DNA from: Nitrosopumilus sp.
GTDB taxonomy: Archaea > Thermoproteota > Nitrososphaeria > Nitrososphaerales > Nitrosopumilaceae
NCBI GenBank assembly: GCA_965205215.1
Contig: OZ242041.1
Location: forward strand, 1,824,001-1,888,000
DNA length: 64,000 nucleotides
Direction of reading: 5' to 3'
In this document: piece after piece, positions 13,837-53,478 of the stretch
How positions within the stretch are numbered: the first letter of the stretch is position 1
Layout of the letters: each line of letters opens with the position of its first letter
The notes under the pieces: model-generated
What the model was told of the DNA's origin: nothing
The model's database searches: none
What the model saw: only the letters and a program-made list of their open reading frames with translations
Position numbers and translations under genes: made by a program

Positions 13837-14973
13837 TCAAGACGGTTCTGTCTTGGGACGCGTCGCGGAGGGCGCATCACCACTGTGCGCGCCCACAAGA
13901 TCCAGGTAGGTTTTGTGGCGGCGCTTTTGAATCGCGTCAAAGATTCCTGCGGCGCCGTCCCCAAGATTGGCATAGTTTGCAGTGACGTACTGCAGTGCAA
14001 TGTCGCAGTCGTGTATGGCGCCAGTCGATTCCTGGACCTGCCTTACGCTGTCCAAGACCCTCGACAGTGATGCATCATAGTCTTGGGCATCACCGACATT
14101 GCAGGTGTCACTGGCATGGGGGGCGACGACGACGACGCTGCAATACGTCCGGTACTGGGTCTCGTCTTCCAGCAGGTAGCGGAGCCTCTTTACCATCTTC
14201 CGCATGGCATGAAGCTCCTCAACCTTTGACTCGTCAGAGGTCACTGTTACAGAGATGCCACGCACGTCATCAAAGAGCGACCAGATCATGCGCCTGCGCT
14301 TGGACGCCATCTTGTGCCGGTCAATCTTGTCCACCGATCCAGACAGCGGCTTGAGCGCCGCTATTTTCCTGGCGCGAAAGAGCGAGTCCCCAAGGGCGCC
14401 CTCCCTGCCGCGGCAGAGTTTTACAACCGCCTCCGAATCGGCCGGAACGCCCAGCTTGATCAGCATGCCGGATATGACATCAGAGTCCCGCAGCGGGCCG
14501 GTCCTGCGGAACAGGTCCCTTGCAGCGGACACCAGCTTGCCGCAGCGCGCGGGCCTTTCTGACTTTGGCAGTGCGCCGTACGTGGACTCGAGCCGGCGTA
14601 TGGACGTGCGCAGGTCGTGCAGCTGCTCCTCGCCCGGACTGGACATGTATGCCTCAAGGCGCTTTGCAAAGAGATCGTAGCGCCTGCGCATTGCGTTGCG
14701 GTACGTCCTTGTGGTGCCAGCATCGTTGCCCGAGACGGGGTGCGGCCCGCCCTTTTTAGGCGGCTTTTTCCCGGAGCCCGCAGTATCCGCCACCGCGCCC
14801 GCAGCGTCAGGGACGGGTTCGCGCGCCGAGGCGGTCACGGAAGCGTCGGGGGCGGCGTCAGCGACAGTAGAGGTAGTGGCAGTGGCAGTATCGGCGTCGG
14901 CGGCGACAGCGGGGACGCCCTGCCCATGATCGTCATGTTCCCCGTGCGTGGTTTCGGGCCTTGTGTGAGCCAT
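13837..14973 (-). CDS. CHAD domain protein (polyphosphate-binding)
   Basis: LHDLRTSIRRLES, LRDSDV, LHAMRKMVKRLRYLLE and QESTGAIHD CHAD motifs; low-complexity N-terminus. Confidence 0.9.
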   Translation of the reverse strand: MAHTRPETTHGEHDDHGQGVPAVAADADTATATTSTVADAAPDASVTASAREPVPDAAGAVADTAGSGKKPPKKGGPHPVSGNDAGTTRTYRNAMRRRYDLFAKRLEAYMSSPGEEQLHDLRTSIRRLESTYGALPKSERPARCGKLVSAARDLFRRTGPLRDSDVISGMLIKLGVPADSEAVVKLCRGREGALGDSLFRARKIAALKPLSGSVDKIDRHKMASKRRRMIWSLFDDVRGISVTVTSDESKVEELHAMRKMVKRLRYLLEDETQYRTYCSVVVVAPHASDTCNVGDAQDYDASLSRVLDSVRQVQESTGAIHDCDIALQYVTANYANLGDGAAGIFDAIQKRRHKTYLDLVGAHSGDAPSATRPKTEPS

Positions 14974-14997
14974 GCGCCGCCATCACCGCCATTATCG

Positions 14998-15960
14998 TCA
15001 TGCCTTTGAGAGATACCGCAGGATCTGCTTCTTGAGCCCGGCGTTTATGACGTCCGTGGGGCGGTTTCCGTTTATGATGTTGAGGTCGTACTTTTGCTCC
15101 AGGATCCCAAACTCCCGGGCGAGCCTCTGCTGGTATTTTATGAAAGAGTCGTACATGTTCTTTGATATGCCCATGTCGGCTCCCGACTCGTAATAGTCCA
15201 GGCTCTGCCTCTTTGCAAAGACGCGGTGCACGAGTGCGTACGGGTCCACGTCAAGGTAAAAGGTCATGTCCGGCACGAGTGCAAAGCTGTACAGGTTGCT
15301 TGACCAGCTGCGCCTGATGCCGCGCACCGTGTTTCGCGCCATGAGCGTGTAGATGTATCGGTCTGCCAGTACCACATAGCCCGCCTGCAGCGCCGGTATG
15401 ATCTTGTGCTCCAGCTGGTCTGCAAAGTCGGCCGCATAAAACATTGCAAGCGTCCTCACCCCAAGCGAGATGTTGCGCTTGGCCTCCAGTATGCCCTGGC
15501 CGATTATCTCCGAGCGCGTGAGTCCCGTGTTTAGCACGGCGTATCCTTCTGCCTCTAGCTGCGTGGTGAGCAGCTCGATCTGGGTGCTTCTTCCGGACGC
15601 GTCGGGCCCCTCTATTACGATCAGGCGCCCCGCTATCTCGATGTCGCGCAGATAGTGCAGCCCGCCGAACTTTTTTGTTCCGTACCATTTGGGCCTGCGG
15701 GACTTCATGCCACCCATGTTACTGCTACTGCCGCCAGCGCCAGCTCCGCCGCCGGTACCGGTACCGGCGGCGCGACTGCCGCCGCCGTCCGCGGCGGCAC
15801 CCTCCACACCCGCAAGCCGGAGGTATATGTCAGAGTCATAGTACGCGTGGCTGTCAGAATACTCCTCTGTAGCGTCGCCGGCCGCGTCATTATTCTCAGA
15901 GTCCTCCCCGGCACCGCCATGCATGACGCGGCCATGTGCGGCGCGTGCCTCTGCGACCAC
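14998..15960 (-). CDS. Thymidylate-kinase-like protein with degenerate P-loop (candidate non-catalytic subunit of a polyP kinase)
   Basis: IEGPDASGRST (Walker A Lys replaced by Arg) and ADRY. Start uncertain: 15960, 15924 or 15708. Confidence 0.85.
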   Translation of the reverse strand: MVAEARAAHGRVMHGGAGEDSENNDAAGDATEEYSDSHAYYDSDIYLRLAGVEGAAADGGGSRAAGTGTGGGAGAGGSSSNMGGMKSRRPKWYGTKKFGGLHYLRDIEIAGRLIVIEGPDASGRSTQIELLTTQLEAEGYAVLNTGLTRSEIIGQGILEAKRNISLGVRTLAMFYAADFADQLEHKIIPALQAGYVVLADRYIYTLMARNTVRGIRRSWSSNLYSFALVPDMTFYLDVDPYALVHRVFAKRQSLDYYESGADMGISKNMYDSFIKYQQRLAREFGILEQKYDLNIINGNRPTDVINAGLKKQILRYLSKA

Positions 15961-16000
15961 CGCCCCGGACGCGTCGCGTACGGATGCAAAGTCGCCCGCG

Positions 16001-16789
16001 TCAGACGTGCCCGGGCACCTCCAGAACGGTCTTCTTCTTGAGCTTCTTTGGAAGCAGCTTGCGCACCTTGGCCCGCATGATCATCTGCTGTTCGTGGATG
16101 GGCATCGTGGCGTCCATAACCACGAAGCTCTCGCGCTTGTGCATCGCCTCATACTGCTCTACGATGCGGTGCTGGAATATCCTAAAGCTCTCGTAGAGGT
16201 CCTTTGAGAGGTTCAGGTCGGCGCCGGCTTCATAAAACTTCAGCTTTGGCCTGCCGGACAATATGCGGTCCATCGCGGTGTCAAGCGGCACCCTAAAGTA
16301 GAATGCGATGTCGGGCTTTATGGCAAAGTCGTAGACCTTGCGGACCCACGCCGGGTCGCATCCCCGCGTCACGTCCCTGGCGTACGCGGTGTAGACGTAC
16401 CTGTCGGCCAGCACGAAGTAGCCGGCATGAAGCAACGGCAGTATGTGCCGCTCAAATCGATCGGCAAAGTCAGTCGCGTGAAGGAGGCTGAACGTGGTGG
16501 GTGTCAGGGCTTCCTTTTTCTTGCCCTTGGACGTTATGGAACGGACTATATCCGAAGAGTTCCACTCCGTGCGAAACACCTCAAACATGTTGTACCGCAG
16601 CCACTTTTCAAGCAACAACAGCTGGGTGGACTTGCCGGAGCCGTCTATCCCCTCGACTACGATAAGCTTGCCAGGGACGTCCCCCCTGCGCGGGCGGCGC
16701 CTCCCGGCTTCGGCCTTTTTGGCCCCCGCCTGTCCCGCGGCGCCGTAATCGCCGTCCGCGGCGCCAGTGCGCGAGGATGCAGCCATCAT
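16001..16789 (-). CDS. Thymidylate-kinase-like protein with intact P-loop (candidate catalytic subunit of a polyP kinase)
   Basis: VEGIDGSGKST and ADRYVYT; paralogue of the adjacent gene. Confidence 0.88.
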   Translation of the reverse strand: MMAASSRTGAADGDYGAAGQAGAKKAEAGRRRPRRGDVPGKLIVVEGIDGSGKSTQLLLLEKWLRYNMFEVFRTEWNSSDIVRSITSKGKKKEALTPTTFSLLHATDFADRFERHILPLLHAGYFVLADRYVYTAYARDVTRGCDPAWVRKVYDFAIKPDIAFYFRVPLDTAMDRILSGRPKLKFYEAGADLNLSKDLYESFRIFQHRIVEQYEAMHKRESFVVMDATMPIHEQQMIMRAKVRKLLPKKLKKKTVLEVPGHV

Positions 16790-16986
16790 GCATGGTTTTT
16801 GCCCGCAAATAGACTATAAGTCTTGCAAATAATCCGCAGGGTTGCCCCGCGCGCCGGCGCAGCGGCGCGCCGCGGCGGGGTGGGCCCACTAGTGGACGGC
16901 GCAGGTGGCGTATGACGCGGGCAGTCCGGGCGGGGGCGCGGAGGGGCCAAGTGACGCCTGCAGTTGCACGGGTGGGCGCACGCGCG

Positions 16987-18708
16987 TCACCCAACGACCC
17001 GGACGTCCGGACGGAACGGTATTCCAAACGCGTCCTCCAGCTGGGAGCACGCTTCCTCGAACATGAGGTGCGGAAAGCGGCCTCCGGGCGGCGCGCGTAC
17101 GGCAAGCGTGACGGAGCCGCCTTTGCCAAACTCCGGGACCATGTCGGCCGAGGACTTCTCCAGTATCTGGTACGCAAGCACAATGGCCGACATCCGGCGT
17201 ATCCGTTTCTTGTCGTACGAGCGGGCTATGGACCCAAAGTTGAGCAGGTTCACGTCAGCCTTGCGGCGCTTTCTCAGGTGCATCAGGGCCAGGGCGGCGG
17301 CAAGCTGGTCGCCGTGGCTCAGGTGCGAGTCGTCGTCCATTATGGTATACAGTATGTTTGAGATGTCCCTAAACGACCTCAGGCGGTCCGTCTGCTCCAG
17401 CGCGTACCGGATTACGGGCCGGTCGACTGGGTGCAGGAGGTTTGCAGACAGGAGAAGCTCCACGAGCGCGTCGATTTTGGACGATACGAGGACCGAGGAC
17501 GGGGAGACCGCGCTGAGGACAGTCTCCCGGATGTGCTGCTCGTCTATGCGCTGCGACTTGAACGCGGCCGGGTGCTGTATCGACAGCGCAAGCGCGCCCT
17601 CCCGCAGTCCGTGCGCGCTGACAGTCAGCCTTTCGCATTTCACGCTTTTGAGAAACGACATTATTACGAGCACGGAGGCGCGCAGGGTGTCTGCCCGCGA
17701 GGAGTTTATTGTGGGAATCTTTGCAATCCTGTCAGGGGGCATGTCGCGTATCTTTTTCCATATGTCCTCAAGGTCGGTCACGGAGAGCTGGTAGTTGTGG
17801 GTCTTTGAGAGCGGGTAGCCTTTGGCGTCCTGCACGTATTTGGTAAGCGAGCGGAGCACCCCGCCGACCCCCACTATGGCGACTGCCGGAGGCCCGGTCC
17901 CGACGGCGCCGTCGCGGCCGTCTTTGTCGCCGCGAATATTGCCATCGTCGTCGCTGCCGGCGCCGTTGCCGGCGCCATTGTCACCGCCCGCACTGCCGCC
18001 GTCGCCCGCCGGGTATAGCTCGCCGTCCTTTATCTCCAAGTCCTTCAGGGACGGCAGCGCCTTACCGACGTACTTTTTCATGGCCTCAAAGTCCACATCC
18101 TCGTACTTGGAATCTTCGGCGAACTTTTGCGTCAGCCGCAGGGAGCCGAGCGGGAAAGAGTGCGCGCTCTTTACCTTGTAGTTCTTTGCAGTGACGACCT
18201 CCAGGCTCCCCCCGCCAATGTCAAAGAAGAGCACCGATGGGATGTGCAGCATGCGCACGGCCCCCGTGTACGAGTAGAGGGCCTCGTCCCTGTCTGACAG
18301 TATCTTAAAGTCGAGGCCGGTCTCTTGGCGGATGCGATCTGTTATGTCGCGGCGGTTCTTCGCGTCGCGTATTGCGCTGGTCGCCACCGCGACCACGTGC
18401 TGTATCCCCTCAAAGTCTATCGCCTCACGGAACAGCCTGAGTGTCTCGACCATGCGGTCCACGTACTCGGGCTGCATGACCCCGCCCTTGAGCCCCTCAA
18501 AGAGGCGCAGGCGCACGGATCTCTGGTAATAGAGCTTGAAGTCGTTGTGCGCGTCCATGGTATAGTGCGAGAGTTTCACAGAGTTTGATCCCAGATCAAG
18601 CACGGACGCCGCGGGCCTGCTTGATTCCCCCCGGGCCGCCTCCGCGGGGATCCGTGACGTCCCAATGCGCCGCGCGGAGGCGATTGCGGCGTGCAGCTCC
18701 GGCATCAT
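16987..18708 (-). CDS. ppx: Exopolyphosphatase, Ppx/GppA family
   Basis: LDLGSNSVKL, VATSAIRDAKN, DIGGGSLE, PLGSLRL and GLREG motifs. Start set from the TATA box near 18728-18735. Confidence 0.93.
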   Translation of the reverse strand: MMPELHAAIASARRIGTSRIPAEAARGESSRPAASVLDLGSNSVKLSHYTMDAHNDFKLYYQRSVRLRLFEGLKGGVMQPEYVDRMVETLRLFREAIDFEGIQHVVAVATSAIRDAKNRRDITDRIRQETGLDFKILSDRDEALYSYTGAVRMLHIPSVLFFDIGGGSLEVVTAKNYKVKSAHSFPLGSLRLTQKFAEDSKYEDVDFEAMKKYVGKALPSLKDLEIKDGELYPAGDGGSAGGDNGAGNGAGSDDDGNIRGDKDGRDGAVGTGPPAVAIVGVGGVLRSLTKYVQDAKGYPLSKTHNYQLSVTDLEDIWKKIRDMPPDRIAKIPTINSSRADTLRASVLVIMSFLKSVKCERLTVSAHGLREGALALSIQHPAAFKSQRIDEQHIRETVLSAVSPSSVLVSSKIDALVELLLSANLLHPVDRPVIRYALEQTDRLRSFRDISNILYTIMDDDSHLSHGDQLAAALALMHLRKRRKADVNLLNFGSIARSYDKKRIRRMSAIVLAYQILEKSSADMVPEFGKGGSVTLAVRAPPGGRFPHLMFEEACSQLEDAFGIPFRPDVRVVG

Positions 18709-18910
18709 CACGCTAACGCCAAACCGCATTAATAATAACAATTGTGCCCAATCGTGACATGCCGGTGGCGGCCCGGTCACGGCGCCGCGCTTTGCGCATT
18801 TTTCGATCGCGGGTGCCACGATCGCGGCTCATTCCCGGTGCGCCAGCGCGTAATATACGAGCATAACGACCCGCGGCCGACAACTCGCGTTGCGCCGCAC
18901 GGGAAGGGCG

Positions 18911-19486
18911 TCAGCGAGCTGCGCGCCGGCACAGCCTCAGCTGCTTTGGAGTCATCAGGCTTCGCAGAAACCCCCTCATCACCCGCGCATCCGCGTTTGC
19001 CCGTATGACTGCAAGCCCGCCCTTTTTGAGATTTATGACCGCGTCGGGCGCGTACGCGTACGCGCGCCTATCGCGCGCCGTAGACCGCCCGGAGCGCCGG
19101 GCGATCATAGAGGATGCCAGCGACGACAGATGAGGCTCGTGCCCCACAAGCATCACGCCCAAATCCGGGGCCATTGCAGCCAGCCGCCCGTGCGCACCCA
19201 GCACGTCCGACTCAGGCTTTAGTTCCTGCCATATGCCGACCCGGGCGGAGCCCCGGCCCGAATCTTGCTCAAGCCGCAGACGCTCGCGTATGATCTCGGC
19301 AGTCTCGCGGGCCCTGACAAGCGGGCTTGATATTATACGATCGGGACGTATCCCAAGCGCCGTAATCCCAGATGCAACCTGCTCCATCTCGTTCCTGCCG
19401 GACTCTGTCAGCCTACGCTTTGCATCGCTTGAGATGCCGGACGAGCGCTCCTCTGCCTTGCCATGCCTGAGAATGTAGATCTCCAC
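18911..19486 (-). CDS. sixA: Phosphohistidine phosphatase SixA
   Basis: ILRHGKAE, RRLT..G, SSPLVRARETA, LVGHEP and LKKGG motifs. Confidence 0.92.
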   Translation of the reverse strand: MEIYILRHGKAEERSSGISSDAKRRLTESGRNEMEQVASGITALGIRPDRIISSPLVRARETAEIIRERLRLEQDSGRGSARVGIWQELKPESDVLGAHGRLAAMAPDLGVMLVGHEPHLSSLASSMIARRSGRSTARDRRAYAYAPDAVINLKKGGLAVIRANADARVMRGFLRSLMTPKQLRLCRRAAR

Positions 19487-19642
19487 GTGTACAATATCCC
19501 GGCACGTGTTTAAAAGAGCCGCAGACGATGTCTGGGTATACGATCTGTGCAGTCGTCAGGTACAGCGTACGGCATCCGACACGAAGGGTGGTGGTGGCGG
19601 GCGGTAACAACTGTTATTTGTGCATGGAAGGTCAGCCGTAGC

Positions 19643-26108: not shown

Positions 26109-26429
26109 ATGACAGCAGAGAATGCGTTCAGGATAACCCAGATCGTGGACAACGGCAAGATAATCCAACTGACGCTGGTCGAGAACGTCTCGACGGAGCC
26201 CATAACCCAAAAACAGATGATAATGGAGAACGTCTCAAAGACCCTGGATGACGACACCAAGGAGCACGTGATGCCGCTGTTGACTGCGATACTGCAGGCC
26301 CAGCCGACCGTAAAGATAAAGTCGTATCAGCAGACCCAGATCACCATTGCCATGCCCACATCCAGATACGACTCGATGGGCCGTCCCAGGGTCGGCGACA
26401 TAATGGAGCTAGACCTCAGAAGGGTCTAG
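26109..26429 (+). CDS. Hypothetical protein
   Basis: 106-aa ORF with a TATA-like element near 26081. Confidence 0.75.
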
Positions 26430-28520
26430 TCCGAGGGCTTCCCGGAGCCGGTCCGCATCGTGTATGGGCAGCGAGCATACAGAGTCCTTGCACACGTACG
26501 CGCTTGCCCGTCCTTCGTCAAACGCCTTGCCGGCAAAAAACGGGTACGCCAGGACGCCGTCAAGCTGCTCCCGGCTCCTGATCTCGACCACAATCGAGTC
26601 GGGCAGGTATGAGGAGAGCACCATCCTGCACATGCCGGGGTCGGCAGGCGTGTTCAGCAGCGTGATCTCGCGTGATCCTGCAAGCATCGTAGACATTACG
26701 TTGAGCATGTACCCGAACGCAAACGGGTTCTCGGCGCACGCGGGAGCCTGGGAGCGGACGGACGCGCTGCACGCATCAAGGAACGGGCGCTCCCCAGTCA
26801 GGTGGTACAGCCGCAGCAGGACGTGCACTGCGACGGAGTTTCCGGACGGCATGGAGAGGTCGTACCTGCTCTGCGGCCTGATTATCAGGCTCTCGTGCAT
26901 GCGTCCCGTCATGAAAAAGCCCGACGTCTCCTCGTCCCAGAACTCCGAGAGGATCACGCGGCCCATCCGTACAGCGGACTCCAGGTATTCCGCGTCGGGT
27001 TCGGCCTCAAAGACGTCCAAAAGCGCGCATGCGAGGTACGCGTAATCCTCCAGGTATCCGTCTATCCGGGCCCTGCCGTCTTTGTACGTGCGCAGCAGCC
27101 TGCCGTCGCAGAACATCTCGGACTGGACAAAGGACAGGCACCTCTTTGCCGCGTCAAGGTACGCCGAATCACCGGACACGCGGTATCCCTTTGCAAGGGC
27201 GGAGACGAACAGCGCGTTCCATGATACCAGAATCTTCTGGTCAAGTCCCGGGGGCACGCGGCCCGCGCGGCGCGCAGCCAAGAGCGCTGCGGCGGACCTC
27301 TCCAGGGACGCCCGCGCGTCACCCTCAGGTACACCCACCTTGAACGCGGCAGTCGACAGCGCTATGTTGTTGCACAGGATGGTGCTGCCCTCCCAGTTGC
27401 CGCCGTCCGTCACGTCATAATACAGGCAGAAGAGATCCGCGTCGCGCGTGCCGGCCCCGAGAACCTCCAGAACCTCGCGCTTGGTCCACGTATAGTACCT
27501 GCCCTCCACGCCCTCAGAGTCAGCGTCGTATGCAGAGTAAAAGCCGCCCAGGGGCGAGGTCATCTCCCGCAGCACAAAGTCAAGCGTCTTTTTCATGACG
27601 TCGAGATAGAACTCCTTCTTGGTCAGCTGGTACGCCTCGGCGTAATTGACCGGAATGAGCGCGTTGTCATACAGCATCTTTTCAAAATGGGGGACGAGCC
27701 AGCGGGCGTCGGTGGAGTACCGGTGGAATCCGCCCCCGATCTGGTCGAATATCCCCCCGCGCGCCATTCTGTCAAGCGTCTTTAGCGCGAACTTTGCAAA
27801 TGACTCATGGCCGGTCGACGCGGCATACCTGAACAGGAACGAGACGCATGCGGCGTTTGGAAACTTCGGCGCCGAGCCGAACCCCCCGTGCGTGTAGTCA
27901 CCGTTGTTGTACAGGTTGACGGCGGCCTCGTCCATCGTTGACTCGTCAAAGCCCAGTCTGCCCCGGCGCGTGTCGGACTCCGGCGCGCGCAGTGCGGCCC
28001 CCGACAGGGGGGCGCCATCCGCCTTTGAGAGAGCGCGCACAAAGTCGTCGGCGCGCGAGTCGACGTCGCCCTGCCTCTCGGCCCAGGACTGCGCAAGCTG
28101 CCTGCAGACGCTCCCAAACCCGGGCCTTCCGTGCGAGTCGAGCGGCGGGTAGTACGTCCCGACGTGGAACGGCTTCTGGTCGGGGGTCAGAAAGACGCTC
28201 AGCGGCCAGCCGCCCTGCCCCGTCGCCATCTGGCACGCCTTTTGGTAAATGTCGTCGATGTCAGGGCGCTCCTCCCTGTCCACCTTTATGTTTACAAAGT
28301 TCGAGTTCATAAATGACGCAACATCCTCGTTCTCAAACGACTCGTGGGCCATCACGTGGCACCAGTGGCACGAGCTGTACCCGACGCTCAGGAATATCGG
28401 CTTGTTCTCGTTTCTGGCCCTGTCGAGGGCCTCGCTGCCCCACGGATACCAGTCGACGGGGTTTTCTGCATGCTGCAGAAGGTACGGGCTGGTCTCCCCT
28501 GCAAGCCGGTTCTTGGGCAT
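26409..28520 (-). CDS. Thioredoxin-domain/six-hairpin protein (YyaL/SSP411, DUF255 family)
   Basis: [38 protein letters not shown] and [10 protein letters not shown] motifs. Confidence 0.95.
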
Positions 28521-28729
28521 ATACGTGACGGAATGGCGTTCCTATTTGTATGGATCCGCGCATCGCACGGTGCCCGGGCCCGGTGTGCCGTCCTTTGCAA
28601 GCGATGCCAAACACGCGCCGCGCGCACATGCAGAGCAGCGGTCGCCGCGCGTCCAACAAGAACCGCGCACGGGCGGCGGGCGGTGTGCCGTGCAATGTTC
28701 TTTAAATTGGGCGCGGGCCGGCCTACCGC

Positions 28730-29074
28730 ATGCCGGCAGGAGGCCCCGTGAGCGTCAGAAGGCAGTGCATATACGCGGCCATCCCCGTTCTGGACATATA
28801 CTCGGCATATCACATAAGGAAGCTCAGGCGATACCTGCTTGTCATACTGTGCACAGTCCTGATCCCCCAAGTTGCAGTCGAGTTTGCGTTGTTTGACAGC
28901 ATGCTGGAAATTCAAGAGGCGTACACCGCCTTTTTGTATCCAGAGTCAGAGCATTTTGCACAGAGCATCTACGTCATGCTGTGGACTGCAGGCAGTATCG
29001 CATGGTCAGTCGTGCTCATCAGGCGGTGGTCAATGCAATGGAACGCCGGCAGGCCGTGGGATCACCACGCGTGA
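28730..29074 (+). CDS. Hypothetical membrane protein
   Basis: Hydrophobic segments and a C-terminal RRWSxxWN; TTTAAATT about 25 nt upstream. Confidence 0.65.
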   Translation: MPAGGPVSVRRQCIYAAIPVLDIYSAYHIRKLRRYLLVILCTVLIPQVAVEFALFDSMLEIQEAYTAFLYPESEHFAQSIYVMLWTAGSIAWSVVLIRRWSMQWNAGRPWDHHA

Positions 29075-29525
29075 GAACTGCGCGGATTCAGACACGCGGC
29101 ACGTGGGGACAGCAGCCCGTACGGCGACGGCCCGCGAACGCGTATCTGATGAAGCGCCCGATACAACAGATGTCAGACGTGGCCGCCAAGGCAGAATGCG
29201 AGGCGTTTGTCACAGAAAGCCCAAGCGCGGCCTAGGCGCACTCTGCCGGTCCGGGGTGCGGCCGCCCGTTGCCGTCGTTGATTACACAGATTCCCCTTTG
29301 GTATGAACCCGCGAGGTGGCGTCCGTCGCCACCGCTTTGATCCTGTTGTTGCTGTCCAAGACCCCTGCCACGCATATTCGGCCAAGGTGCATACGGTGTG
29401 CAAACTCGCGGGCAGGGCTGCGGGCGTACGCGCTCAGCCGCCGTCAGACGGCCTCCGGCTAACCATTAACGCACGATTATCCACTACTGCTACCACCACC
29501 ACCATCACCATCACGACGATGGAGA

Positions 29526-29882
29526 TTATGATGATGATGATGAGGGGGATGATAACGTACCAAGTGCACCATCGATCATGTTCTTGTAGGTTGCCTTTGG
29601 CGCCGAGCCGACGTGCTGTGCCGCGATACTGCCCTTGCCAAAGATGAGGAGCGTCGGTGTGCTGTGCACTTCATACTGAGATGCCAGATCTTCACTCTTG
29701 TCTATGTCTACATCTACAAACTTGACCCTTCCGACATAGTCCTCGGAGAGCTCTTCCACTGTCTGTTTTATCATGTGGCAGTGTCCGCACCACTCTGCAT
29801 GAAATTTCACAAGCACGAGAATGTCCGACTGCAGCACCTCGGATTCCCACGCGCCCTTGTCTTTGACCGACATGGTGCCCAT
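29526..29882 (-). CDS. trxA: Thioredoxin (WCGHC active site)
   Basis: FHAEWCGHC, VDVDID and VHSTPTL (cis-Pro loop); poly-Ser tail. Confidence 0.92.
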   Translation of the reverse strand: MGTMSVKDKGAWESEVLQSDILVLVKFHAEWCGHCHMIKQTVEELSEDYVGRVKFVDVDIDKSEDLASQYEVHSTPTLLIFGKGSIAAQHVGSAPKATYKNMIDGALGTLSSPSSSSS

Positions 29883-38113: not shown

Positions 38114-40627
38114 ATGAAGATCGCCATCGTATACAACAAAAAAAAGATTGACGACCAGGACGTGATCAACGTGTTTGGCGCGACCACGCTGGAGCACTAC
38201 TCGCACCGCACGGTGGAGCTGGTGGCCACCGCGCTGGAGCGCGGGGGGCATTCTGTAAAGATCATCGAGGGAGGAATGAGCTTTATCGAGGAGATGAAGG
38301 AGTTCATGCCGCGCGTGGTTTCGGGCAGCAGGCCCGGGATGGTCTTCAACATGGCGTACGGCATCCAGGGGCGCAACCGCTACACCCACGTTCCTGCCAT
38401 GCTCGAGATGCTCGGGATACCGTATGTGGGATCGGGACCCGAGGCCCACGCGGTGGTCCAGGACAAGGGAATGACTAAGATCGTCTTGCAGAGAAACGGC
38501 ATACCGACCCCCGGGTTCTGGATGTTTGGCTCCCCCGACGACGTGTTTGACGATCTGGTGTTTCCCGTGATCGTAAAGCCCAACATGGAGTCTACGTCCA
38601 TGGGGATGGACGTGGTAGACGACTGGGACAGCCTGCGCAGGTCGGTGCGAACCCAGATGGAAAAATACTCGCAGGAGATACTGGTGGAGCAGTTCATACC
38701 CGGCAGGGAGTTTGCAGTTGGGCTGCTTGGAAACGGGGCCAGCGTCGAGGTGCTGCCGATCGTGGAGATGGACCTTGGCGGCGATCCGAACCGCATACAG
38801 ACCATAACCGACAAGAAAGAGACGCCCGTTGAAAAGATCTGCCCCGCAGCTCTCGACGAGGAACAGTGCGCGCTCATGCGCAGGATTTGCCTTACGGCCT
38901 TTGGAAAGCTGGGTCTAAACGACTTTACCCGGGTAGACCTGCGCATGGCCGAAGACGGCAAGATCTACGTTTTGGAACTAAACTCGATGGCAAGCCTTGG
39001 CAAGACCGGTTCCTATTACACGGCTGCCAAGGCGGCGGGTTACTCGTATGACTCGCTGATCAACAAGATCCTCGACGTGGCGGCGATACGATACTTTGGG
39101 GAGTCTTCGCTCCAAGGCCGCTACAGCTACCACCACCACCAACATGACGACGACGGGGGCGGTGGCGCCGCGATCACGGGCATGGCAGCAGATGCGGCAC
39201 GCGCCGCGTCCGGGGGCGCAAGGCAGAGGGTGCAGGCGCGATCAAAGCCCGCGCCATCACCACACTCCGCGCCCCCGCTGCGCTCCATACTGCGGAGCTA
39301 TCTCAGGAGCCACCACACCACCAGTGAGAAACTGCTGCGACACCTAGTGATGACCAACTCCAGCGTCTACAACGTCGAGGAGGTCAACGAGATTGGCAGC
39401 ATCATGACCAAGAGGCTGGAGCACCTGGGGTTCGTGCCGCTCGTATACAAGGAGTTCGACGTGGGGGACATGATATACTATACTAACTATACGGGCGACT
39501 CTGCAGGCATTGACGTGCAGGCAGCAGCAGCGGCCGCAGCGGCCGCATCCCCCCCATCCGCTGCAGGCGGCTCGGGCGGCGCGGGCAGGACCGCCCGCAA
39601 GAACGACATCCTGATGCTGAGCCACCTCGACACGTGGTACTCCAACCGGGACTTTGCAGCGTTCCACAAGGCCGGCAGCAAGATGTACGGCTCGGGCATA
39701 GCCGAGTCCAAGGGGGGGCTTGTCACTATGCTGTCGGCGCTGCAGGCCCTGCGGTTTGCGCGCAGGCTCAAAAAGGCGCGGTGCGGCATACTGCTTGTAA
39801 CCGACGACTCGATAGGGGGGCGGTTCAGCAAGAAGCTGATCCGCGACATCGCGGCAGGCTACGACTACATAGTGGATCTCAAGTGGGGCATGCCAAACGG
39901 CGGCATCGCGACGTCGTGCTCTGGGATCACAAAGTATCACATCGACATGATGCACATAAGGCAGCGCGACGACACCATAAAGGACGTCATCCCGGACATG
40001 TGCAAAAAGGTCGTTGACTGGAAGAGGATGTCCGATTCGCACAACAGGGCAAGGGTCGTGATATCGGACATCTCGGCGCGCACCTCGTTTGGCAACTCGC
40101 CGGACTATGGCAGCCTCACGCTTACGACCAGGTACGTGACGCGGCGGCAGGGCGACGAGTTCGATTCCGAACTTCACAAGATCGCCAAAAAGAGGACAAA
40201 GTCCAAGCTTGACACGCACATCGTACAGCAGGCGAGGAGGAACCCCGTGGAAAAGACCGCAAAGACGCAGGGGTTCTTTGACATGGTCAGCAGGCTTGCC
40301 GACGAGTCCGACGTCGGGGTTTTGGAAGATCACAGGTATGCCTCATCCAGCCTCGGGGACATTGCGGACGCGGACAAGTTCGTGCTGGGCTCCATGGGCC
40401 CCGTGGGGGTCGACTACAGGACCCCGAATGAGCACATCATAAGCGACAGCATGATCGAGAGGGCCCTCCTGCTCGCGCTCGTCATCGACAAGCTTGCGTC
40501 TGAGAGGAACGAAGGCGGCGGCAAGAAGGGCGGAACGGCGGCGGCAAAAGAAGGGGCGCGGCGGCGGGCAGTGCATCGGATGCCGGCTGCAGACAACGCG
40601 GCCGCAGGTGGTGGGAGGCCGCAGTAG
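38114..40627 (+). CDS. Fusion of a D-Ala-D-Ala-ligase-like ATP-grasp domain and an M20/M25/M40 peptidase-like domain
   Basis: N-half: GIPYVGS, QDK, FPVIVKP..ESTSMG, EQFIPGREF, RVDLR, LELN. C-half: LSHLDT, YGSGIAESKGG, MGPVG..YRTPNE. Confidence 0.88.
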   Translation: MKIAIVYNKKKIDDQDVINVFGATTLEHYSHRTVELVATALERGGHSVKIIEGGMSFIEEMKEFMPRVVSGSRPGMVFNMAYGIQGRNRYTHVPAMLEMLGIPYVGSGPEAHAVVQDKGMTKIVLQRNGIPTPGFWMFGSPDDVFDDLVFPVIVKPNMESTSMGMDVVDDWDSLRRSVRTQMEKYSQEILVEQFIPGREFAVGLLGNGASVEVLPIVEMDLGGDPNRIQTITDKKETPVEKICPAALDEEQCALMRRICLTAFGKLGLNDFTRVDLRMAEDGKIYVLELNSMASLGKTGSYYTAAKAAGYSYDSLINKILDVAAIRYFGESSLQGRYSYHHHQHDDDGGGGAAITGMAADAARAASGGARQRVQARSKPAPSPHSAPPLRSILRSYLRSHHTTSEKLLRHLVMTNSSVYNVEEVNEIGSIMTKRLEHLGFVPLVYKEFDVGDMIYYTNYTGDSAGIDVQAAAAAAAAASPPSAAGGSGGAGRTARKNDILMLSHLDTWYSNRDFAAFHKAGSKMYGSGIAESKGGLVTMLSALQALRFARRLKKARCGILLVTDDSIGGRFSKKLIRDIAAGYDYIVDLKWGMPNGGIATSCSGITKYHIDMMHIRQRDDTIKDVIPDMCKKVVDWKRMSDSHNRARVVISDISARTSFGNSPDYGSLTLTTRYVTRRQGDEFDSELHKIAKKRTKSKLDTHIVQQARRNPVEKTAKTQGFFDMVSRLADESDVGVLEDHRYASSSLGDIADADKFVLGSMGPVGVDYRTPNEHIISDSMIERALLLALVIDKLASERNEGGGKKGGTAAAKEGARRRAVHRMPAADNAAAGGGRPQ

Positions 40628-42331
40628 TTGGACATAGGCAGGGTCGAATCGTCGTTCTCCCCGTCCACATACGGCAGGAAGGCCGCATATTCCGCGAAGG
40701 GGGGCATGGTGGCGTCCGCGTTTCCAGACGCGACGCAGGCGGGAGTCGAGATGCTCAAAAAGGGCGGAAACGCAGTCGATGCGGCGTGCGCAACGGCCTT
40801 TGCGCTCGGCGTGTGCGAGCCGCAGGCATCCGGGATCGGGGGCCAGTCCATGTGCATAATGCACATGGACAGGAAGAGCGTGGCAATAGACGGCTCGAGC
40901 AGGTCCCCGTCGCGCGCTCACTCGTCGGCATACCATACAAAGAGGAGGCGCCTACTGGGCTACAAGGCGACCACGGTTCCAAGCACCGTGGCCGTGCTTG
41001 GGATAATGCACGAGCGTTACGGCGCCCTCGAGTGGCAAAAGGTGCTGGCGCCCGCCATACGTATAGCCAGGAGGGGGTACCGCATCACCAAGCTGCAGAG
41101 CCGCATCCAGGCAAAGGAGCTGGAAAACTTTCTGAGCATAAAGTCAAGGTCGGGTGCAAGGTACTTTCTAAAGGACGGACAGGCGCCGTACGAGGCGGGC
41201 GACAGGTTCGTGCAGGACGACCTGGCGCAGACGCTGAGGGCCATATCGGACAGCGGCTACCAGAGCTTTTACCGCGGAAGCATAGCAAAGCAGATAGACC
41301 TGGACATGCAGAGAAACGGGGGCCTCATACGGGAGGAGGACCTGACGTACATTCCGGAGCCCATAGAGAGGGCTCCGATCAGAAGACAGTACCGGGACGT
41401 CTCGGTGGTGACCATGCCCCCTCCCGCCGCGGGGCTGACGCTCCTGCTGACGCTGATGATGCTCAACCACCTGCCGTCCAGGTTCCTGCGCAGCAAGAAG
41501 CCGAGCTCCTACCACTTTGTCGCCGAGACGTTTAGAAAGGCGTTCTGGCACAGGGTGCTGCGCCCGTTCAACCCCCACACGTACAGCCAGATGCACGACA
41601 TGCACTACCACCACCTGAAGCGCTCGTTTGCAAGGCAGATGGCCGACTCCATACACAACTCGATGGACGACACGCTGCCGATCATGGACCATGCGTTTGG
41701 CGGGGACGAGGACGAGGGCGGGGAGACCACGCACCTGTCCGTAATGGACGACGAGGGGAACGCGGTAGGGATAACCCAGTCAATCGAGCTTCCATACGGC
41801 TCAAAGGCGGCGGCAGACGGGCTGGGGTTCCTGTACAACAACTACATGTCCGCCTTCGACTTTGAAAATACAATGAACCCGTTTTACATCAGGCCGAACG
41901 AGGTGCCGTGGACGTCGGTCTCGCCGGCGCTCATATTTCACGACAAGCGGCTGTGGATGGTGGTGGGAAGCCCGGGAAGCCAGAGGATCTTCTCGACGGT
42001 CGCCCAGTTTCTCATGGGGGTGGTCGACGGGAGCCTTCCGATTGACGCCTCGATGTACCTGCCGCGGCTCCACTGCACGATAGGGGGGGAGATCGGCATA
42101 GAGGACGGCGCGTTTGAGAAGCCCGTGATGAGGTATCTGGAGGGGCTGGGATACAAGGTCGTGGTCAGGGACCGGTTCTCGTTTTACCACGGGGCCGTCC
42201 ACGCCGTCATGAAGATGCAGACCCGGGACGGATTCCAGGGGGTGGCGGAGGTGAGGCGGGACGGCACCGCCGCATCCGCGGGTGGCGGCGTCGACAAAAG
42301 CGGCAACAGGCGCAGCGGTGATCGCCCCTGA
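40628..42331 (+). CDS. ggt: Gamma-glutamyltransferase family Ntn-hydrolase
   Basis: GGNAVDAA, EPQASGIGG, ETTHLSV (nucleophile Thr), GSPGS and PRLH. TTG start directly abuts the upstream TAG. Confidence 0.93.
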   Translation: MDIGRVESSFSPSTYGRKAAYSAKGGMVASAFPDATQAGVEMLKKGGNAVDAACATAFALGVCEPQASGIGGQSMCIMHMDRKSVAIDGSSRSPSRAHSSAYHTKRRRLLGYKATTVPSTVAVLGIMHERYGALEWQKVLAPAIRIARRGYRITKLQSRIQAKELENFLSIKSRSGARYFLKDGQAPYEAGDRFVQDDLAQTLRAISDSGYQSFYRGSIAKQIDLDMQRNGGLIREEDLTYIPEPIERAPIRRQYRDVSVVTMPPPAAGLTLLLTLMMLNHLPSRFLRSKKPSSYHFVAETFRKAFWHRVLRPFNPHTYSQMHDMHYHHLKRSFARQMADSIHNSMDDTLPIMDHAFGGDEDEGGETTHLSVMDDEGNAVGITQSIELPYGSKAAADGLGFLYNNYMSAFDFENTMNPFYIRPNEVPWTSVSPALIFHDKRLWMVVGSPGSQRIFSTVAQFLMGVVDGSLPIDASMYLPRLHCTIGGEIGIEDGAFEKPVMRYLEGLGYKVVVRDRFSFYHGAVHAVMKMQTRDGFQGVAEVRRDGTAASAGGGVDKSGNRRSGDRP

Positions 42332-43170
42332 AGGCGCTGCCCGTTCTGATCTCAATCCCCCACGGGGGAACCGAGGCGCCGCGGGAGCTTGACGGGCGCC
42401 TCTGCATTACCGAGTCCGCGCAGTTCGACGACTCGGATCCGTTCACGGCCGAGATCTATGACATCGGGGAGTCGGCCCTCCACGTCGTAAGGGCCGAGGT
42501 CGCAAGGGCGTACGTCGACCTGAACAGGTCAAGGACGCAGCTGCCGCCAAGTGATCCAGACGGACTGGTCAAGAGCGTCACGTGCTACAACGAGCCCATC
42601 TACATACGCGGGATGGAACCGGGCCCGCAACTCGTAGAGCAGCTCATCAGAAGGTACTATGATCCGTACTACGACGCGATAGAACGAGCGTGCACGGACC
42701 CGCAGGGCGGGCTGCGACTGTGCCTCGACTGCCATTCCATGGCTCCCACCACGCCCCCGGTCAGCAATAATAGCAGCGGCGGCGGCACGGGCCAGGACGG
42801 CGCGCGCGATGGCCGCGGCTCCGCACGCGGGAACGGCGCGGCCCGCCCGCTCTTCTGCCTCTCAAACCGCGACGGCGAGACGTGCCCCGACGATCAGCTG
42901 GAAACGCTTGCATGCTGCATATCAGAGTCCTTTGGGATGCCCAGGGACCGCATACTCCTTAACCGCCCGTTCCGCGGCGGGCACATCACCGAATGGTTCG
43001 GGACAATGTATGGTGCAGTAATCCCGTGGGTGCAGGTCGAGATGAACCGCATGCTGTACCTAGACGAGCGGTGGTTTGACCGCGACTCTGCGAAAATGAC
43101 AGACGGGGCGCGGCTTGCCGAGCTAAACCGCATGTTCCGCGACTCGCTTGTCCGGTTTTTTGCCGCATGA
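42328..43170 (+). CDS. N-formylglutamate amidohydrolase family protein (CTG start)
   Basis: Frame open from CTG 42328: LPVLISIPHGG, DDSDPFT, RAYVDLNR, YYDPYY, DCHSM, NRPFRGGHIT, VQVEMNR.LY. Confidence 0.9.
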   Translation: MKALPVLISIPHGGTEAPRELDGRLCITESAQFDDSDPFTAEIYDIGESALHVVRAEVARAYVDLNRSRTQLPPSDPDGLVKSVTCYNEPIYIRGMEPGPQLVEQLIRRYYDPYYDAIERACTDPQGGLRLCLDCHSMAPTTPPVSNNSSGGGTGQDGARDGRGSARGNGAARPLFCLSNRDGETCPDDQLETLACCISESFGMPRDRILLNRPFRGGHITEWFGTMYGAVIPWVQVEMNRMLYLDERWFDRDSAKMTDGARLAELNRMFRDSLVRFFAA

Positions 43171-50903: not shown

Positions 50904-52943
50904 TCACAGCACCAGCACAGCCACAAACGCGGACACGAACACGATTGCAATCGTGTTTAGCAGCTTGATCACGGTGTTCAGCGCGGGCCCCGCCGTATCC
51001 TTGTACGGATCCCCGATTATGTCGCCCACCACGGCCACCTTGTGCTCCTCGGTGCCCTTTTGGCCCCTCATCTCCACCAGCTTCTTTGCGTTGTCCCACG
51101 CGCCGCCGGTGTTTGCCAGGTGGTACGCCAGGAATATCCCCGTGACCACGGCGCCCATGAGCAGCCCCGCCACGGCCGTCGGCCCTAGCAGCACCCCTAG
51201 TATGATCGGGGCGATGATTGCGACGATTGCGGACTTCCACAGCTCCTTTATCGACGCCACCGTCGCAATGTCGACGCACTTTGCATAGTCCGGCTTGGAC
51301 TTGCCCGTGAGTATCTCGGGGTCGGCCTTGAACTGCCTGCGGACCTCGTCGACCATCTTGCCGGCCGCCCTGGAGACCCCGTTTATCAGCTGCCCGGTTA
51401 TTATAAACGGCACCAGTCCGCCCACAAGCAGCCCCACTATAACGGCGGGGTTTGTGAGGCTGTAGTTCAGCTCCAGCACGCCTTCAAACACGTGGGCCGC
51501 CTCGAACTGGAATGCCTGTATCATGGCCAGCGCCGCAAGGGCCGCGCTTGCAATCGCGAACCCCTTTGTGACCGCCTTTGTGGTGTTTCCGACCGCGTCT
51601 ATCTCGTCTGTCACCTTGCGGTTCTCCTCCCCCATGCCGGTCATCTCCACGATTCCGCCGGCGTTGTCCGCGATCGGCCCGAACGCGTCGATGCTCAGCA
51701 CGATTCCGGCAAGGCTCAGCATCGCCATTGCAGTAAGCGACGTGCCGAATATCCCGTACAGGACGGGATCCGCGCCCTCGGGGGCGGCAGACGATGACAC
51801 CGCATACGATATGATTATTGCGGCAACGAGGGCAATCATGAACGGCCCCGTCGACTGCAGCCCCTTTATGATCCCCATCAGGGTCAGCGACGCATAGCCC
51901 CAGCGCGCCGACTCGGCGATCTCCACGACGGGCCCGTACTTGTAGTTGGTGTACCGGTCCGTTATCTTCTGTATGACCGGGACCAGCAGCACCCCGATGA
52001 CGGTGGTGCCAAACAGGGCGTACGACGCTGCGGTGTCGCCCACAAACCACATCGTAAAGGCAAAGTTCAGTACAATGGCAATCCCGGCCGAGACGTAGAA
52101 CGACCGGTCGAGGGGCTTCATCACGTCCGTGATGTTCTTTGAGCCGACTATGGCTATGCCGATTATGGAGGCAATCATGCCGGAGGTGCCAATCAGTATC
52201 GGGTACAGGAACAGCTCGGGGGCCCCGATGAGGGCCGCTATCAGGATTGCCGCCAGTATGGTCACGATGTAGGACTCGTACACGTCAGAACCCATTCCCG
52301 CCGCGTCCCCCACGTTGTCGCCCACGTTGTCAGCAATCGTGGCGGGGTTGCGGGGATCGTCCTCGGGAATGTTGGCCTCCACCTTGCCGACCAGGTCGGC
52401 CCCCATGTCGGCGGCCTTTGTGAATATGCCGCCGCCTATCCTGATGAACAGCGCAATCAGGCTGGCGCCTATCCCGACGCCGGCAATGGTGATCGGATCC
52501 TCATATATGAGGTACAGCCCGGTTATCGCAAGCAGCGCCATTGCGGGTATCGCAAGCCCCACGGTCGCTCCCCCCCGGAACGCCATCGCAAAGGTCTTGC
52601 CAAGCCCGCTGCCGCTCAGGTTTGCTGCCCGCACGGCGGCCTTTACCGTAATCTTTAGTGATATGAGCCCCGCAACGGCCGACAGCGTCGCCCCCACCGC
52701 AAACGCAATGCCGTTTGAGGGCTGCAGAAACGCTCCGATTATAACGGACAGCGCTATTGCCACGGGCACTATAACCTTCATCTCCCTCTTGAGAAATGCG
52801 GCGGCTCCCACGCGCACCGCGTCGGATATCTCCATCATCTGCTTTGTCCCGGCAGGCTGCCTTGAGATCCAGCCGACCAGCACGCCCGCCACTATAAACG
52901 AGGCAGCCCCCGCCGCAAAGGGCAGGATCTCGGAGAACTCCAT
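50904..52943 (-). CDS. hppA: Membrane-bound H+-translocating pyrophosphatase, K+-independent type
   Basis: GGGIFTKAADMGADLVGKVE, EDDPRNP, DNVGDNVGD and GDPYKD. GNTTKAVTKG carries the Lys/Thr signature of K+-independent enzymes. Confidence 0.97.
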   Translation of the reverse strand: MEFSEILPFAAGAASFIVAGVLVGWISRQPAGTKQMMEISDAVRVGAAAFLKREMKVIVPVAIALSVIIGAFLQPSNGIAFAVGATLSAVAGLISLKITVKAAVRAANLSGSGLGKTFAMAFRGGATVGLAIPAMALLAITGLYLIYEDPITIAGVGIGASLIALFIRIGGGIFTKAADMGADLVGKVEANIPEDDPRNPATIADNVGDNVGDAAGMGSDVYESYIVTILAAILIAALIGAPELFLYPILIGTSGMIASIIGIAIVGSKNITDVMKPLDRSFYVSAGIAIVLNFAFTMWFVGDTAASYALFGTTVIGVLLVPVIQKITDRYTNYKYGPVVEIAESARWGYASLTLMGIIKGLQSTGPFMIALVAAIIISYAVSSSAAPEGADPVLYGIFGTSLTAMAMLSLAGIVLSIDAFGPIADNAGGIVEMTGMGEENRKVTDEIDAVGNTTKAVTKGFAIASAALAALAMIQAFQFEAAHVFEGVLELNYSLTNPAVIVGLLVGGLVPFIITGQLINGVSRAAGKMVDEVRRQFKADPEILTGKSKPDYAKCVDIATVASIKELWKSAIVAIIAPIILGVLLGPTAVAGLLMGAVVTGIFLAYHLANTGGAWDNAKKLVEMRGQKGTEEHKVAVVGDIIGDPYKDTAGPALNTVIKLLNTIAIVFVSAFVAVLVL

Positions 52944-53076
52944 GTATGCGGACTGCCCGGGCATGTAAATATAAATCAAAAAACGGACAAACCCAGGCCG
53001 TGCACGCACAGGGCCGGCGGACCTGCTAATTCTCGGAATATGCCATACGCCGTTGCCGCGCCTGCAGTTGCCACTA

Positions 53077-53478
53077 CTACTTCCCGCGCCCCGATGCTCG
53101 CCTGCGGTACGGGGCAAACCTAGCGCCTGCCAAGCCGCGCCTGACGAGCCTGTTGAACCGCCTGCCGTGGGACATGTATCGGAACCTCATGTGGATGAGC
53201 TCGTGTACGATGGTGTTCTCAAGCACCCTCTCATTTGGAATCTTCCGCACGTTGATGAATATGGTGTTGTGCTGCAGATACGAGACGCCATAGTACTTGT
53301 ATGCAGACGTGCGCCTGCCCGCAGTCATCTCCCTCGGGGCGTCAAGCACCTCCCTCGTGGTCAGGAGCACCCTGGGCTCCGATATCGAAAAGCGGGCAGA
53401 GTATATCCCGACCTTTTCAAGTATGGCAAGGCGCAGCTCCGGTCCCAGCTTCATGGTGTCGGGTCGTGCGACCCGCAT
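53077..53478 (-). CDS. Small HExxH zincin-like protein (SprT/M48-like)
   Basis: TIVHELIH...SHGRRF motif. Confidence 0.75.
   Translation of the reverse strand: MRVARPDTMKLGPELRLAILEKVGIYSARFSISEPRVLLTTREVLDAPREMTAGRRTSAYKYYGVSYLQHNTIFINVRKIPNERVLENTIVHELIHMRFRYMSHGRRFNRLVRRGLAGARFAPYRRRASGRGK

Follow-up and report, generated by a model that had tools for sequence, protein, structure and literature searches.

A probable PPK3-type polyphosphate kinase operon in a Nitrosopumilaceae archaeon

Introduction

The closest described relative of the locus analysed here is the PPK3-type polyphosphate (polyP) kinase of Sulfolobus acidocaldarius, SaPPK3 (J Biol Chem 2026, PMC12995831; preprint 10.1101/2024.08.28.610084). 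The S. acidocaldarius operon comprises saci_2017 (SixA), saci_2018 (the exopolyphosphatase PPX), saci_2019 (cPPK3), saci_2020 (rPPK3) and saci_2021 (CHAD) (PMC12995831). Here we describe a cluster of the same five families in a 64-kb stretch of DNA (Nitrosopumilus sp., contig OZ242041.1, positions 1,824,001 to 1,888,000; the whole stretch is referred to as the window). A sequence-only reading of the window had pointed to a heteromeric 'family 3' polyP kinase made of two annotated dTMP kinases in S. acidocaldarius, and such an enzyme does exist in print (PMC12995831).

In the Sulfolobus system, Saci_2019 (cPPK3) converts ATP to polyP and ADP, while Saci_2020 (rPPK3) is inactive, yielding only trace ADP, and stimulates cPPK3 when the two form an alpha2-beta2 complex. 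The reaction runs in both directions, with ATP formation from ADP and polyP strongly favoured, and polyP synthesis was obtained only at a high ATP/ADP ratio with an ATP-recycling system. dTMP was phosphorylated only by the unlinked Saci_0893, and PPK3 does not conserve the residues that bind dTMP. cPPK3 proteins have a conserved basic cleft for polyP, which rPPK3 proteins do not conserve (PMC12995831), and the inactivity of rPPK3 was ascribed to a replaced or absent arginine of the DRX motif (PMC12995831; preprint 10.1101/2024.08.28.610084). PPK3 is regarded by the authors as the polyP-forming enzyme where PPK1 and PPK2 are both missing, and its range is given as mainly Sulfolobaceae, Nitrososphaeraceae and a few bacteria (PMC12995831). 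A structure is available for STK_15430 of Sulfurisphaera tokodaii (PDB 2plr, 4nzy, 4rzx, 5h70), which was deposited as a 'probable thymidylate kinase' and is a cPPK3 homologue according to the same study (PMC12995831).

Results

Gene content and order of the cluster

The cluster consists of five open reading frames (ORFs), all on the minus strand, and its outer limits fall exactly at positions 13837 and 19486 in the ORF list of the window. Families were assigned with Pfam and NCBIfam (release 20.0) models (Table 1), and the ORF limits and model matches bore out the earlier description of five co-oriented genes including ppx, sixA, a CHAD gene and two genes of thymidylate kinase fold. The families and their order are identical to those of the SaPPK3 operon, with one catalytic (P0003) and one partner (P0002) subunit of thymidylate kinase fold, and PPK1 and PPK2 are likewise absent nearby. 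The observations made here establish which five families are present, that the kinase pair is orthologous to PPK3 and conserved as a pair, its genomic context and the residues specific to each class, and they make it very likely that the cluster is a PPK3-type polyP operon, orthologous in content and order to saci_2017-2021, in which P0003 and P0002 form a heteromer that reversibly moves phosphate between ATP and polyP. By analogy with the Sulfolobus work, the two proteins would be expected to form the heteromer, to act on polyP and not on dTMP, and to show a similar direction of flux.

A Pfam scan of 60 further ORFs of the window yielded neither PPK1 nor PPK2, in agreement with the earlier claim that no ppk1 or ppk2 stands beside the cluster. 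A profile built from both kinase classes detected no third kinase of thymidylate kinase fold in the window. No canonical tmk was present among ORFs of at least 110 aa in the window and in 80 related loci (described below); all 157 matches scored above 150 bits and all belonged to the two PPK3 classes.

The three genes around the kinase pair retain features of their families. The SixA protein (P0005) carries, as read from its translation, RHG at residues 8-10 and GHEP further on. In PPX (P0004) the DLGSNS and DIGGGS motifs are invariant in six of six aligned sequences (P0004 and five relatives from Nitrososphaerota loci) and an ATSA(I/V)R block is conserved. P0004 scored 224.5 bits against TIGR03706 (exo_poly_only), under the cutoff of 307, probably because the match is split by a 45-residue G/D-rich in-frame insertion at approximately residues 268-312 that is absent from the five aligned relatives. 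In the CHAD protein (P0001), H119, H255 and H321 are invariant in all six sequences of an alignment with five relatives, in which the N-terminal 85-residue stretch of P0001 has no counterpart. More generally, the cluster genes of the window carry low-complexity insertions rich in G, D and A, or spacers of high G+C content, that are missing from relatives, for example at PPX residues 268-312 and upstream of the cores of the partner and of CHAD.

The window therefore differs from the SaPPK3 operon in the 45-residue low-complexity insertion in PPX and in the G+C-rich spacers or N-terminal extensions that separate its genes. The hosts also differ, a mesophilic Nitrosopumilaceae archaeon in one case and a thermoacidophile in the other. 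The partner subunit of the window keeps the DRX arginine and has an arginine at the Walker-A lysine, a difference in which Saci_2020 was compared by its published description only.

The catalytic-type subunit P0003

P0003 matched STK_15430 (PDB 2plr/5h70) over its full length with 216.6 bits (3.7e-63), residues 40-246 aligning with 4-209, and the two proteins have in common the P-loop, the EWNSS block, the DRY motif and the lid; P0003 differs in a basic, alanine-rich N-terminal extension of 36 residues. The next best of the 35 distinct PDB sequences matched was a canonical thymidylate kinase at 60.5 bits. STK_15430 was also the best PDB match of P0002 (119.2 bits), with canonical kinases reaching at most 50.4 bits among the 32 sequences matched. 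The PDB scores place both proteins nearest to STK_15430, by 69-156 bits over the canonical kinases. The relationship of the pair to Saci_2019 and Saci_2020 was established through these STK_15430 scores and the published description, not through direct identity.

The residues expected of a cPPK3 are intact in P0003: the Walker-A lysine (K53), D129-R130-Y131 and the lid residues R175, R180 and K184. Class-wide comparisons were based on the kinase ORFs of the 80 related loci and the window, which gave 81 catalytic and 76 partner rows; a read-through ORF (L037), a truncated partner (L058) and three loci with no partner gene (L005, L012 and L057) contributed no partner row, and the second genes of L049 and L060 were reassigned to the partner class. 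The Walker-A lysine is found throughout the catalytic class (81 of 81). Nine positions (K62, R83, K88, K92, R111, R114, R180, K184 and R203 in P0003 numbering) are lysine or arginine in at least 84% of the catalytic rows and in at most 25% of the partner rows; P0003 is basic at nine of the nine and P0002 at one. These positions appear to fit the published polyP cleft, conserved in cPPK3 and not in rPPK3, the match to the published residues being by description only. On these sequence comparisons P0003 is a cPPK3 orthologue.

Both kinases narrowly pass the NCBIfam dTMP kinase equivalog TIGR00041 (87.6 bits for P0003 and 84.5 bits for P0002, cutoff 83.25). The PPK3 subunits of two further loci, L002 and L016, do so marginally as well (83.7-94.8 bits), the margins over the cutoff spanning 0.5-11.5 bits in all, and no model specific to PPK3 came up in NCBIfam 20.0. 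Canonical dTMP kinases (TIGR00041/PF02223) share with the pair the fold, the P-loop, the DRY motif, the lid and the passing of model cutoffs; in contrast to them, the pair scores barely over the cutoff and lies far nearer to PPK3 than to more than 30 solved dTMP kinases.

The partner subunit P0002

P0002 is 37% identical to P0003. It has arginine (R124) in place of the Walker-A lysine and retains DRY as D200-R201-Y202; the arginine at the Walker-A position and the DR pair are both found in 76 of 76 partner-type proteins. The published hallmark of rPPK3, replacement or absence of the DRX arginine, is therefore not seen in P0002, in which the degenerate site is instead the Walker-A lysine. As the DRX arginine is retained, the published reason for rPPK3 inactivity is inapplicable to P0002. 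An rPPK3-like role is indicated by the pairing and by the loss of the basic cleft, and P0002 is probably, from its sequence, the non-catalytic member of the pair.

In P-loop NTPases a Walker-A Lys-to-Arg change usually preserves nucleotide binding and abolishes transfer. For this reason P0002 is read as a pseudokinase in which nucleotide binding may persist. A partner with a conserved Lys-to-Arg change at Walker A and a retained DRY is possibly the one new detail of the locus; the kinase pair itself is, as judged from its sequence relationships, not novel and is a further example, here in Nitrosopumilaceae, of the PPK3 system already described.

Another pairing of an active P-loop kinase module with an inactive homologue that acts on polyP is known from two-domain class II PPK2 proteins, such as P. 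aeruginosa PPK2C (preprint 10.1101/2024.08.28.610084). These differ from the present pair in that they belong to the PPK2 fold subfamily and are not dTMP-kinase-like, in that the modules are fused and not encoded by two genes, and in that the inactive PPK2 domain is described as lacking the DRX motif that P0002 has (preprint).

Two representatives with NKY in place of DRY, P0240 and P0205, were considered as candidate Sulfolobaceae rPPK3 proteins and rejected, the names returned being Margulisiibacteriota, Acidobacteria, Vicinamibacterales or none.

Conservation of the kinase pair in related loci

The 80 related loci (L001-L080) were collected in one scan of species-representative genomes and constitute a sample, not a census, of Nitrososphaerota; among the matches listed, the scan gave four Nitrosopumilaceae-type loci and none from Sulfolobaceae. 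In 76 of the 80 loci the catalytic gene is followed, at a distance of less than 500 bp, by a partner gene of the same orientation. The exceptions were L005 and L012, which have no partner and derive from one metagenome-assembled genome (MAG), L057, in which the contig stops 58 bp beyond the catalytic gene, and L076, in which the partner lies 2.6 kb upstream. With the window proteins as tblastn queries, PPX was detected in at least 54 of the 80 loci, SixA in at least 36 and CHAD in at least 12; these counts are lower bounds because contig ends cut many loci. All five families were found by tblastn in at least eight loci (L004, L007, L008, L009, L016, L052, L061 and L064), and the order SixA-PPX-catalytic-partner-CHAD was confirmed in L004, L008 and L016 by Pfam annotation of 145 ORFs from L001-L019. 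The five-gene arrangement is not a matter of chance, since the same order occurs in saci_2017-2021, recurs in these three loci and includes a kinase tandem kept in 76 of 80. In the mapping across Nitrososphaerota that the sequence-only reading had proposed, PPK3-like clusters were seen, within this sample of loci, in L001-L017 and L019 and the full order in the three loci just named. Phosphate-uptake genes (pstB or an ABC ATPase, phoU, PHO4, pstC/A-type permeases) adjoin the cluster in L003, L004, L006, L007, L008, L009 and L013.

The Nitrososphaerota clusters (L001-L017 and L019), from MAGs of Nitrosopumilus, Nitrosotenuis, Nitrosotalea, Nitrososphaera and Nitrosocosmicus, encode catalytic subunits 62-82% identical to P0003 (tblastn best segment) and partners with the same Arg-for-Lys signature. 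They differ from the window in the absence of CHAD at this site in L001 and L002, in the missing partner gene of L005 and L012, and in G+C content (0.60 in the window against 0.31-0.56 in eight loci).

A natural fusion of the two modules was found in P0126 (460 aa, Alicyclobacillaceae), the N-terminal half of which is 55% identical to P0003 and the C-terminal half 45% identical to P0002. The modules stand in the order catalytic then partner, as do the genes of the window, and the second P-loop has neither lysine nor arginine. The existence of this fusion lends indirect support to a physical association of the two subunits. A 487-aa ORF in L037 (7974-9437) also reads through both modules, as either a fusion or a sequencing error. 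In the Thermoproteota MAG with partnerless loci, two SixA-PPX-catalytic clusters (L005:3500-4237 and L012:4246-4935) have no adjacent partner; for L012, the 8 kb of downstream sequence covered contained no adjoining one.

Among L018-L080, cPPK3-like genes that stand beside an Arg-type partner have a wide distribution in MAGs of bacteria, including Acidobacteriota/Terriglobia, Verrucomicrobiota, Planctomycetota, Chloroflexota and others, and one such pair (L079) is from Ca. Methanoliparum. Relatives are encoded in at least 458 of 600 candidate stretches of species-representative genomes, and 311 protein clusters at 50% identity score E<=1e-30. From these sequence matches, the spread of PPK3-like proteins looks wider than the published 'a few bacteria'.

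Lineage and residence of the cluster

The best 120 homologues of P0003 are 61-97% identical to it. The few that carry names are from Nitrosopumilus, Nitrosarchaeum and Nitrosopumilaceae, together with one record labelled Flavobacteriales. Proteins at least 90% identical to P0003 are named Nitrosopumilaceae archaeon or Thaumarchaeota archaeon, so that an ammonia-oxidiser lineage can fairly be deduced, and the ammonia-oxidising archaeal host proposed earlier stands on the same names; no amo gene was found in the window. In an unrooted FastTree phylogeny of 171 rows with SH-like supports only, P0003 fell in a 19-row clade (support 99) made up solely of Nitrososphaerota catalytic subunits and including all 18 Nitrososphaerota-type loci, and P0002 in the corresponding clade of 17 rows (support 100), all of them partner subunits from Nitrososphaerota. 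The cluster adjoins sufBD and bacA, as do its counterparts in L001 and L002, and its G+C content (0.62) matches that of the window (0.60). Because both subunits lie in Nitrososphaerota clades, the flanks are shared and the G+C content agrees, the cluster is regarded as resident in the lineage, and the same three observations rule out recent horizontal transfer.

Within Nitrosopumilaceae the cluster is patchy. In Data S1 of PMC12995831, which has columns for PPK1, PPK2 and PPK3, Cenarchaeum symbiosum, N. maritimus and most cultured Nitrosopumilaceae are scored 0/0/0 and one Nitrosopumilus sp. 0/1/1; neither Nitrosopumilus nor Cenarchaeum is mentioned in the accessible text of that paper. A 2021 comparison reported exopolyphosphatase in 2 of 23 Thaumarchaeota genomes, both of sponge symbionts, and named no kinase in its available portion (PMC7848895). 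Ammonia oxidisers do not appear in the titles or abstract openings of the literature on PPK3 and archaea from 2024 onward, among the matches listed.

Gene starts and candidate promoters

The codon-position pattern is strong in the gene cores (GC2 0.35-0.47, GC3 0.73-0.80), whereas the G+C content by codon position is flat in the first 88 codons of the CHAD ORF, the first 85 of the partner and the first 37 of PPX. Since relatives also begin further downstream, the longest-ORF starts of these three genes are probably set too far upstream, and later candidate starts are given in Table 1. With the longest ORFs, P0002 begins 40 bp after the end of P0003. Two TATA-like boxes were noted, the second of which sits within a 197-bp G+C-rich spacer after ppx; they suggest, from the sequence, leaderless transcripts and perhaps two transcription units.

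Table 1. Genes of the polyP cluster, candidate starts and promoters, and further features of the window
Feature	Coordinates	Strand	Evidence or remark
SixA-type phosphohistidine phosphatase, P0005, 191 aa, first gene	18911..19486	-	TIGR00249 84.3 bits (cutoff 74.5); His_Phos_1 1.4e-12
Exopolyphosphatase PPX, P0004, 610 aa (longest ORF)	16987..18819	-	Ppx-GppA PF02541 9e-45
Catalytic kinase subunit, cPPK3 type, P0003, 262 aa	16001..16789	-	Thymidylate_kin 4.3e-22
Partner (regulatory-type) subunit, rPPK3 type, P0002, 320 aa (longest ORF)	14998..15960	-	Thymidylate_kin 2.9e-21
CHAD-domain protein, P0001, 378 aa (longest ORF), last gene	13837..14973	-	PF05235 CHAD 8.6e-15, 55.8 bits (cutoff 25.6)
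Likely PPX start	M38, nt 18708	-	Codon-position GC and relatives
Likely partner (P0002) start	M82 or M85, nt 15717 or 15708	-	Codon-position GC and relatives
Likely CHAD start	M95, nt 14691	-	Codon-position GC and relatives
TATA-like TTTTAAA, predicted archaeal promoter	19509..19515	-	Centred 26 nt upstream of the sixA start codon; read by eye
TATA-like CTTATAG, possible second promoter	16814..16820	-	~28 nt upstream of the cPPK3 ATG; read by eye
DsbA/thioredoxin-like protein, 388 aa	19547-20713	+	Resembles the Rcas_1661 thioredoxin-like lipoprotein family, 131.7 bits (under cutoff 190)
Thioredoxin-fold genes, several	26409-29882		
Possible peptide or gamma-glutamyl metabolism cluster	38114-43170	+	Gamma-glutamyltransferase TIGR00066 361 bits
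Membrane ion-translocating pyrophosphatase	50904-53117	-	PF03030 755.5 bits; NF001960 822.3 bits (cutoff 546)

Neighbouring genes

The gene for the DsbA/thioredoxin-like protein is divergent from sixA and lies 60 bp away, and further thioredoxin-fold genes follow. The group of plus-strand genes from 38114 encodes an 837-aa protein in which a D-Ala-D-Ala-ligase-like ATP-grasp domain is fused to an M20 peptidase domain, followed by a gamma-glutamyltransferase and an N-formylglutamate amidohydrolase-like gene; it may, by its gene content, serve peptide or gamma-glutamyl metabolism. The membrane pyrophosphatase is a second phosphoanhydride-energy enzyme within the same 64 kb. A tRNA scan of the window was negative, as was a search of it for Rfam families at the gathering threshold.

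Discussion

By analogy with the Sulfolobus enzyme, P0003 would transfer terminal phosphate from ATP to the polyP chain end and back, and P0002 would most likely join P0003 in a heteromer (alpha2-beta2 in Sulfolobus) and raise its activity. A high ATP/ADP ratio would lead to net polyP synthesis, and ATP would otherwise be regenerated from polyP. PPX would free phosphate from chain ends, CHAD would bind the polyP granule and SixA would act as a co-transcribed histidine phosphatase. The sequence-only reading had proposed a full module for polyP synthesis, binding and degradation. The five families, the PPK3-like pair and the operon order agree with that proposal; its synthesis half is to be qualified, as the characterised enzyme strongly favours ATP formation from polyP (PMC12995831).

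Several observations weigh against a PPK3-type operon as set out here. Both kinases exceed the cutoff of the dTMP kinase equivalog, if barely, and the status of a separate tmk and of ppk1 and ppk2 in the genome is read from 64 kb only. The DRX arginine that is published as absent from rPPK3s is retained in P0002 and in all 76 partners, and P0002 might, on this evidence from sequence, keep nucleotide binding or some activity. The later starts, if right, leave intergenic gaps of ~280-300 bp, and these gaps, together with the possible internal promoter, may weaken the view that the five genes form a single operon.

The partner could accordingly be a nucleotide-binding or weakly active subunit, for example one that senses the adenylate ratio or a second kinase that acts on a different acceptor, in which case regulation would differ from that of the Sulfolobus enzyme. 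At positions shared with the catalytic class, the partner core is invariant in 76 of 76 proteins: E46, G47, D49, G52, S/T54-55, D107, D129, R130, R138, R142 and R175 (P0003 numbering), the sole change in the P-loop being the strictly conserved Lys-to-Arg, and such strict conservation suggests that the nucleotide site is still used. An active P0002 is nevertheless difficult to reconcile with the loss of eight of the nine positions at which the catalytic class is basic, with the second P-loop of the Alicyclobacillaceae fusion, which has neither K nor R, and with the general experience that a Walker-A Lys-to-Arg change usually abolishes catalysis. The trace of ADP that was all Saci_2020 produced points the same way (PMC12995831), and we consider a partner of this kind rather unlikely. 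A different division of labour, in which the cluster serves polyP mobilisation only, with PPK3 regenerating ATP, PPX releasing phosphate and another enzyme making the polyP, draws on the strong preference of SaPPK3 for ATP formation from ADP and polyP (PMC12995831). Nitrosopumilus maritimus SCM1 has polyP-like granules, and none of the known polyP genes was found in it (PMC11082331), so another polyP route may exist in Nitrosopumilaceae. The enzyme is reversible, however, and is treated by its authors as polyP-forming (PMC12995831), and no alternative kinase is present within the window; a role confined to mobilisation therefore appears distinctly improbable.

That the two genes are ordinary duplicated dTMP kinases, placed beside ppx by accident, would accord with their passing of TIGR00041 and with the annotation of every named relative as a dTMP kinase. 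The margin over that model is just 1-4 bits, though, a PPK3 subunit is the nearest solved relative of both by 69-156 bits, the Walker-A lysine is missing from one of the pair, 76 of 80 loci keep the tandem with polyP genes, and the Sulfolobus orthologues are reported to have no dTMP kinase activity (PMC12995831). Taken together, these points leave duplicated dTMP kinases a highly improbable explanation, and the PPK3-type polyP operon is the reading retained.

As to the family, one may tentatively propose, with doubt still prevailing, that in the large PPK3 branch of Nitrososphaerota and bacteria the partner, unlike the DRX-less dead kinase described for Sulfolobus, is a strictly conserved Walker-A Lys-to-Arg pseudokinase, its nucleotide site otherwise intact, which may sense the ATP/ADP ratio and determine which way the polyP reaction runs. 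On that view, many soil Acidobacteriota and Verrucomicrobiota, and some of the marine ammonia oxidisers, would have in this branch their main polyP kinase, so far unrecognised. The Arg-for-Lys signature of the partner provides a simple marker for such pairs, and it appears to point to a mechanistic difference from the published model.

Because TIGR00041 is just passed and no PPK3 model was returned, PPK3 subunits are systematically labelled as dTMP kinases, and surveys confined to ppk1 and ppk2 consequently miss PPK3 capacity. With the cluster described here, a subset of marine ammonia-oxidising archaea would gain a plausible enzyme with which to make and spend polyP, a capacity relevant to how phosphorus is stored and energy buffered in phosphorus-poor water.

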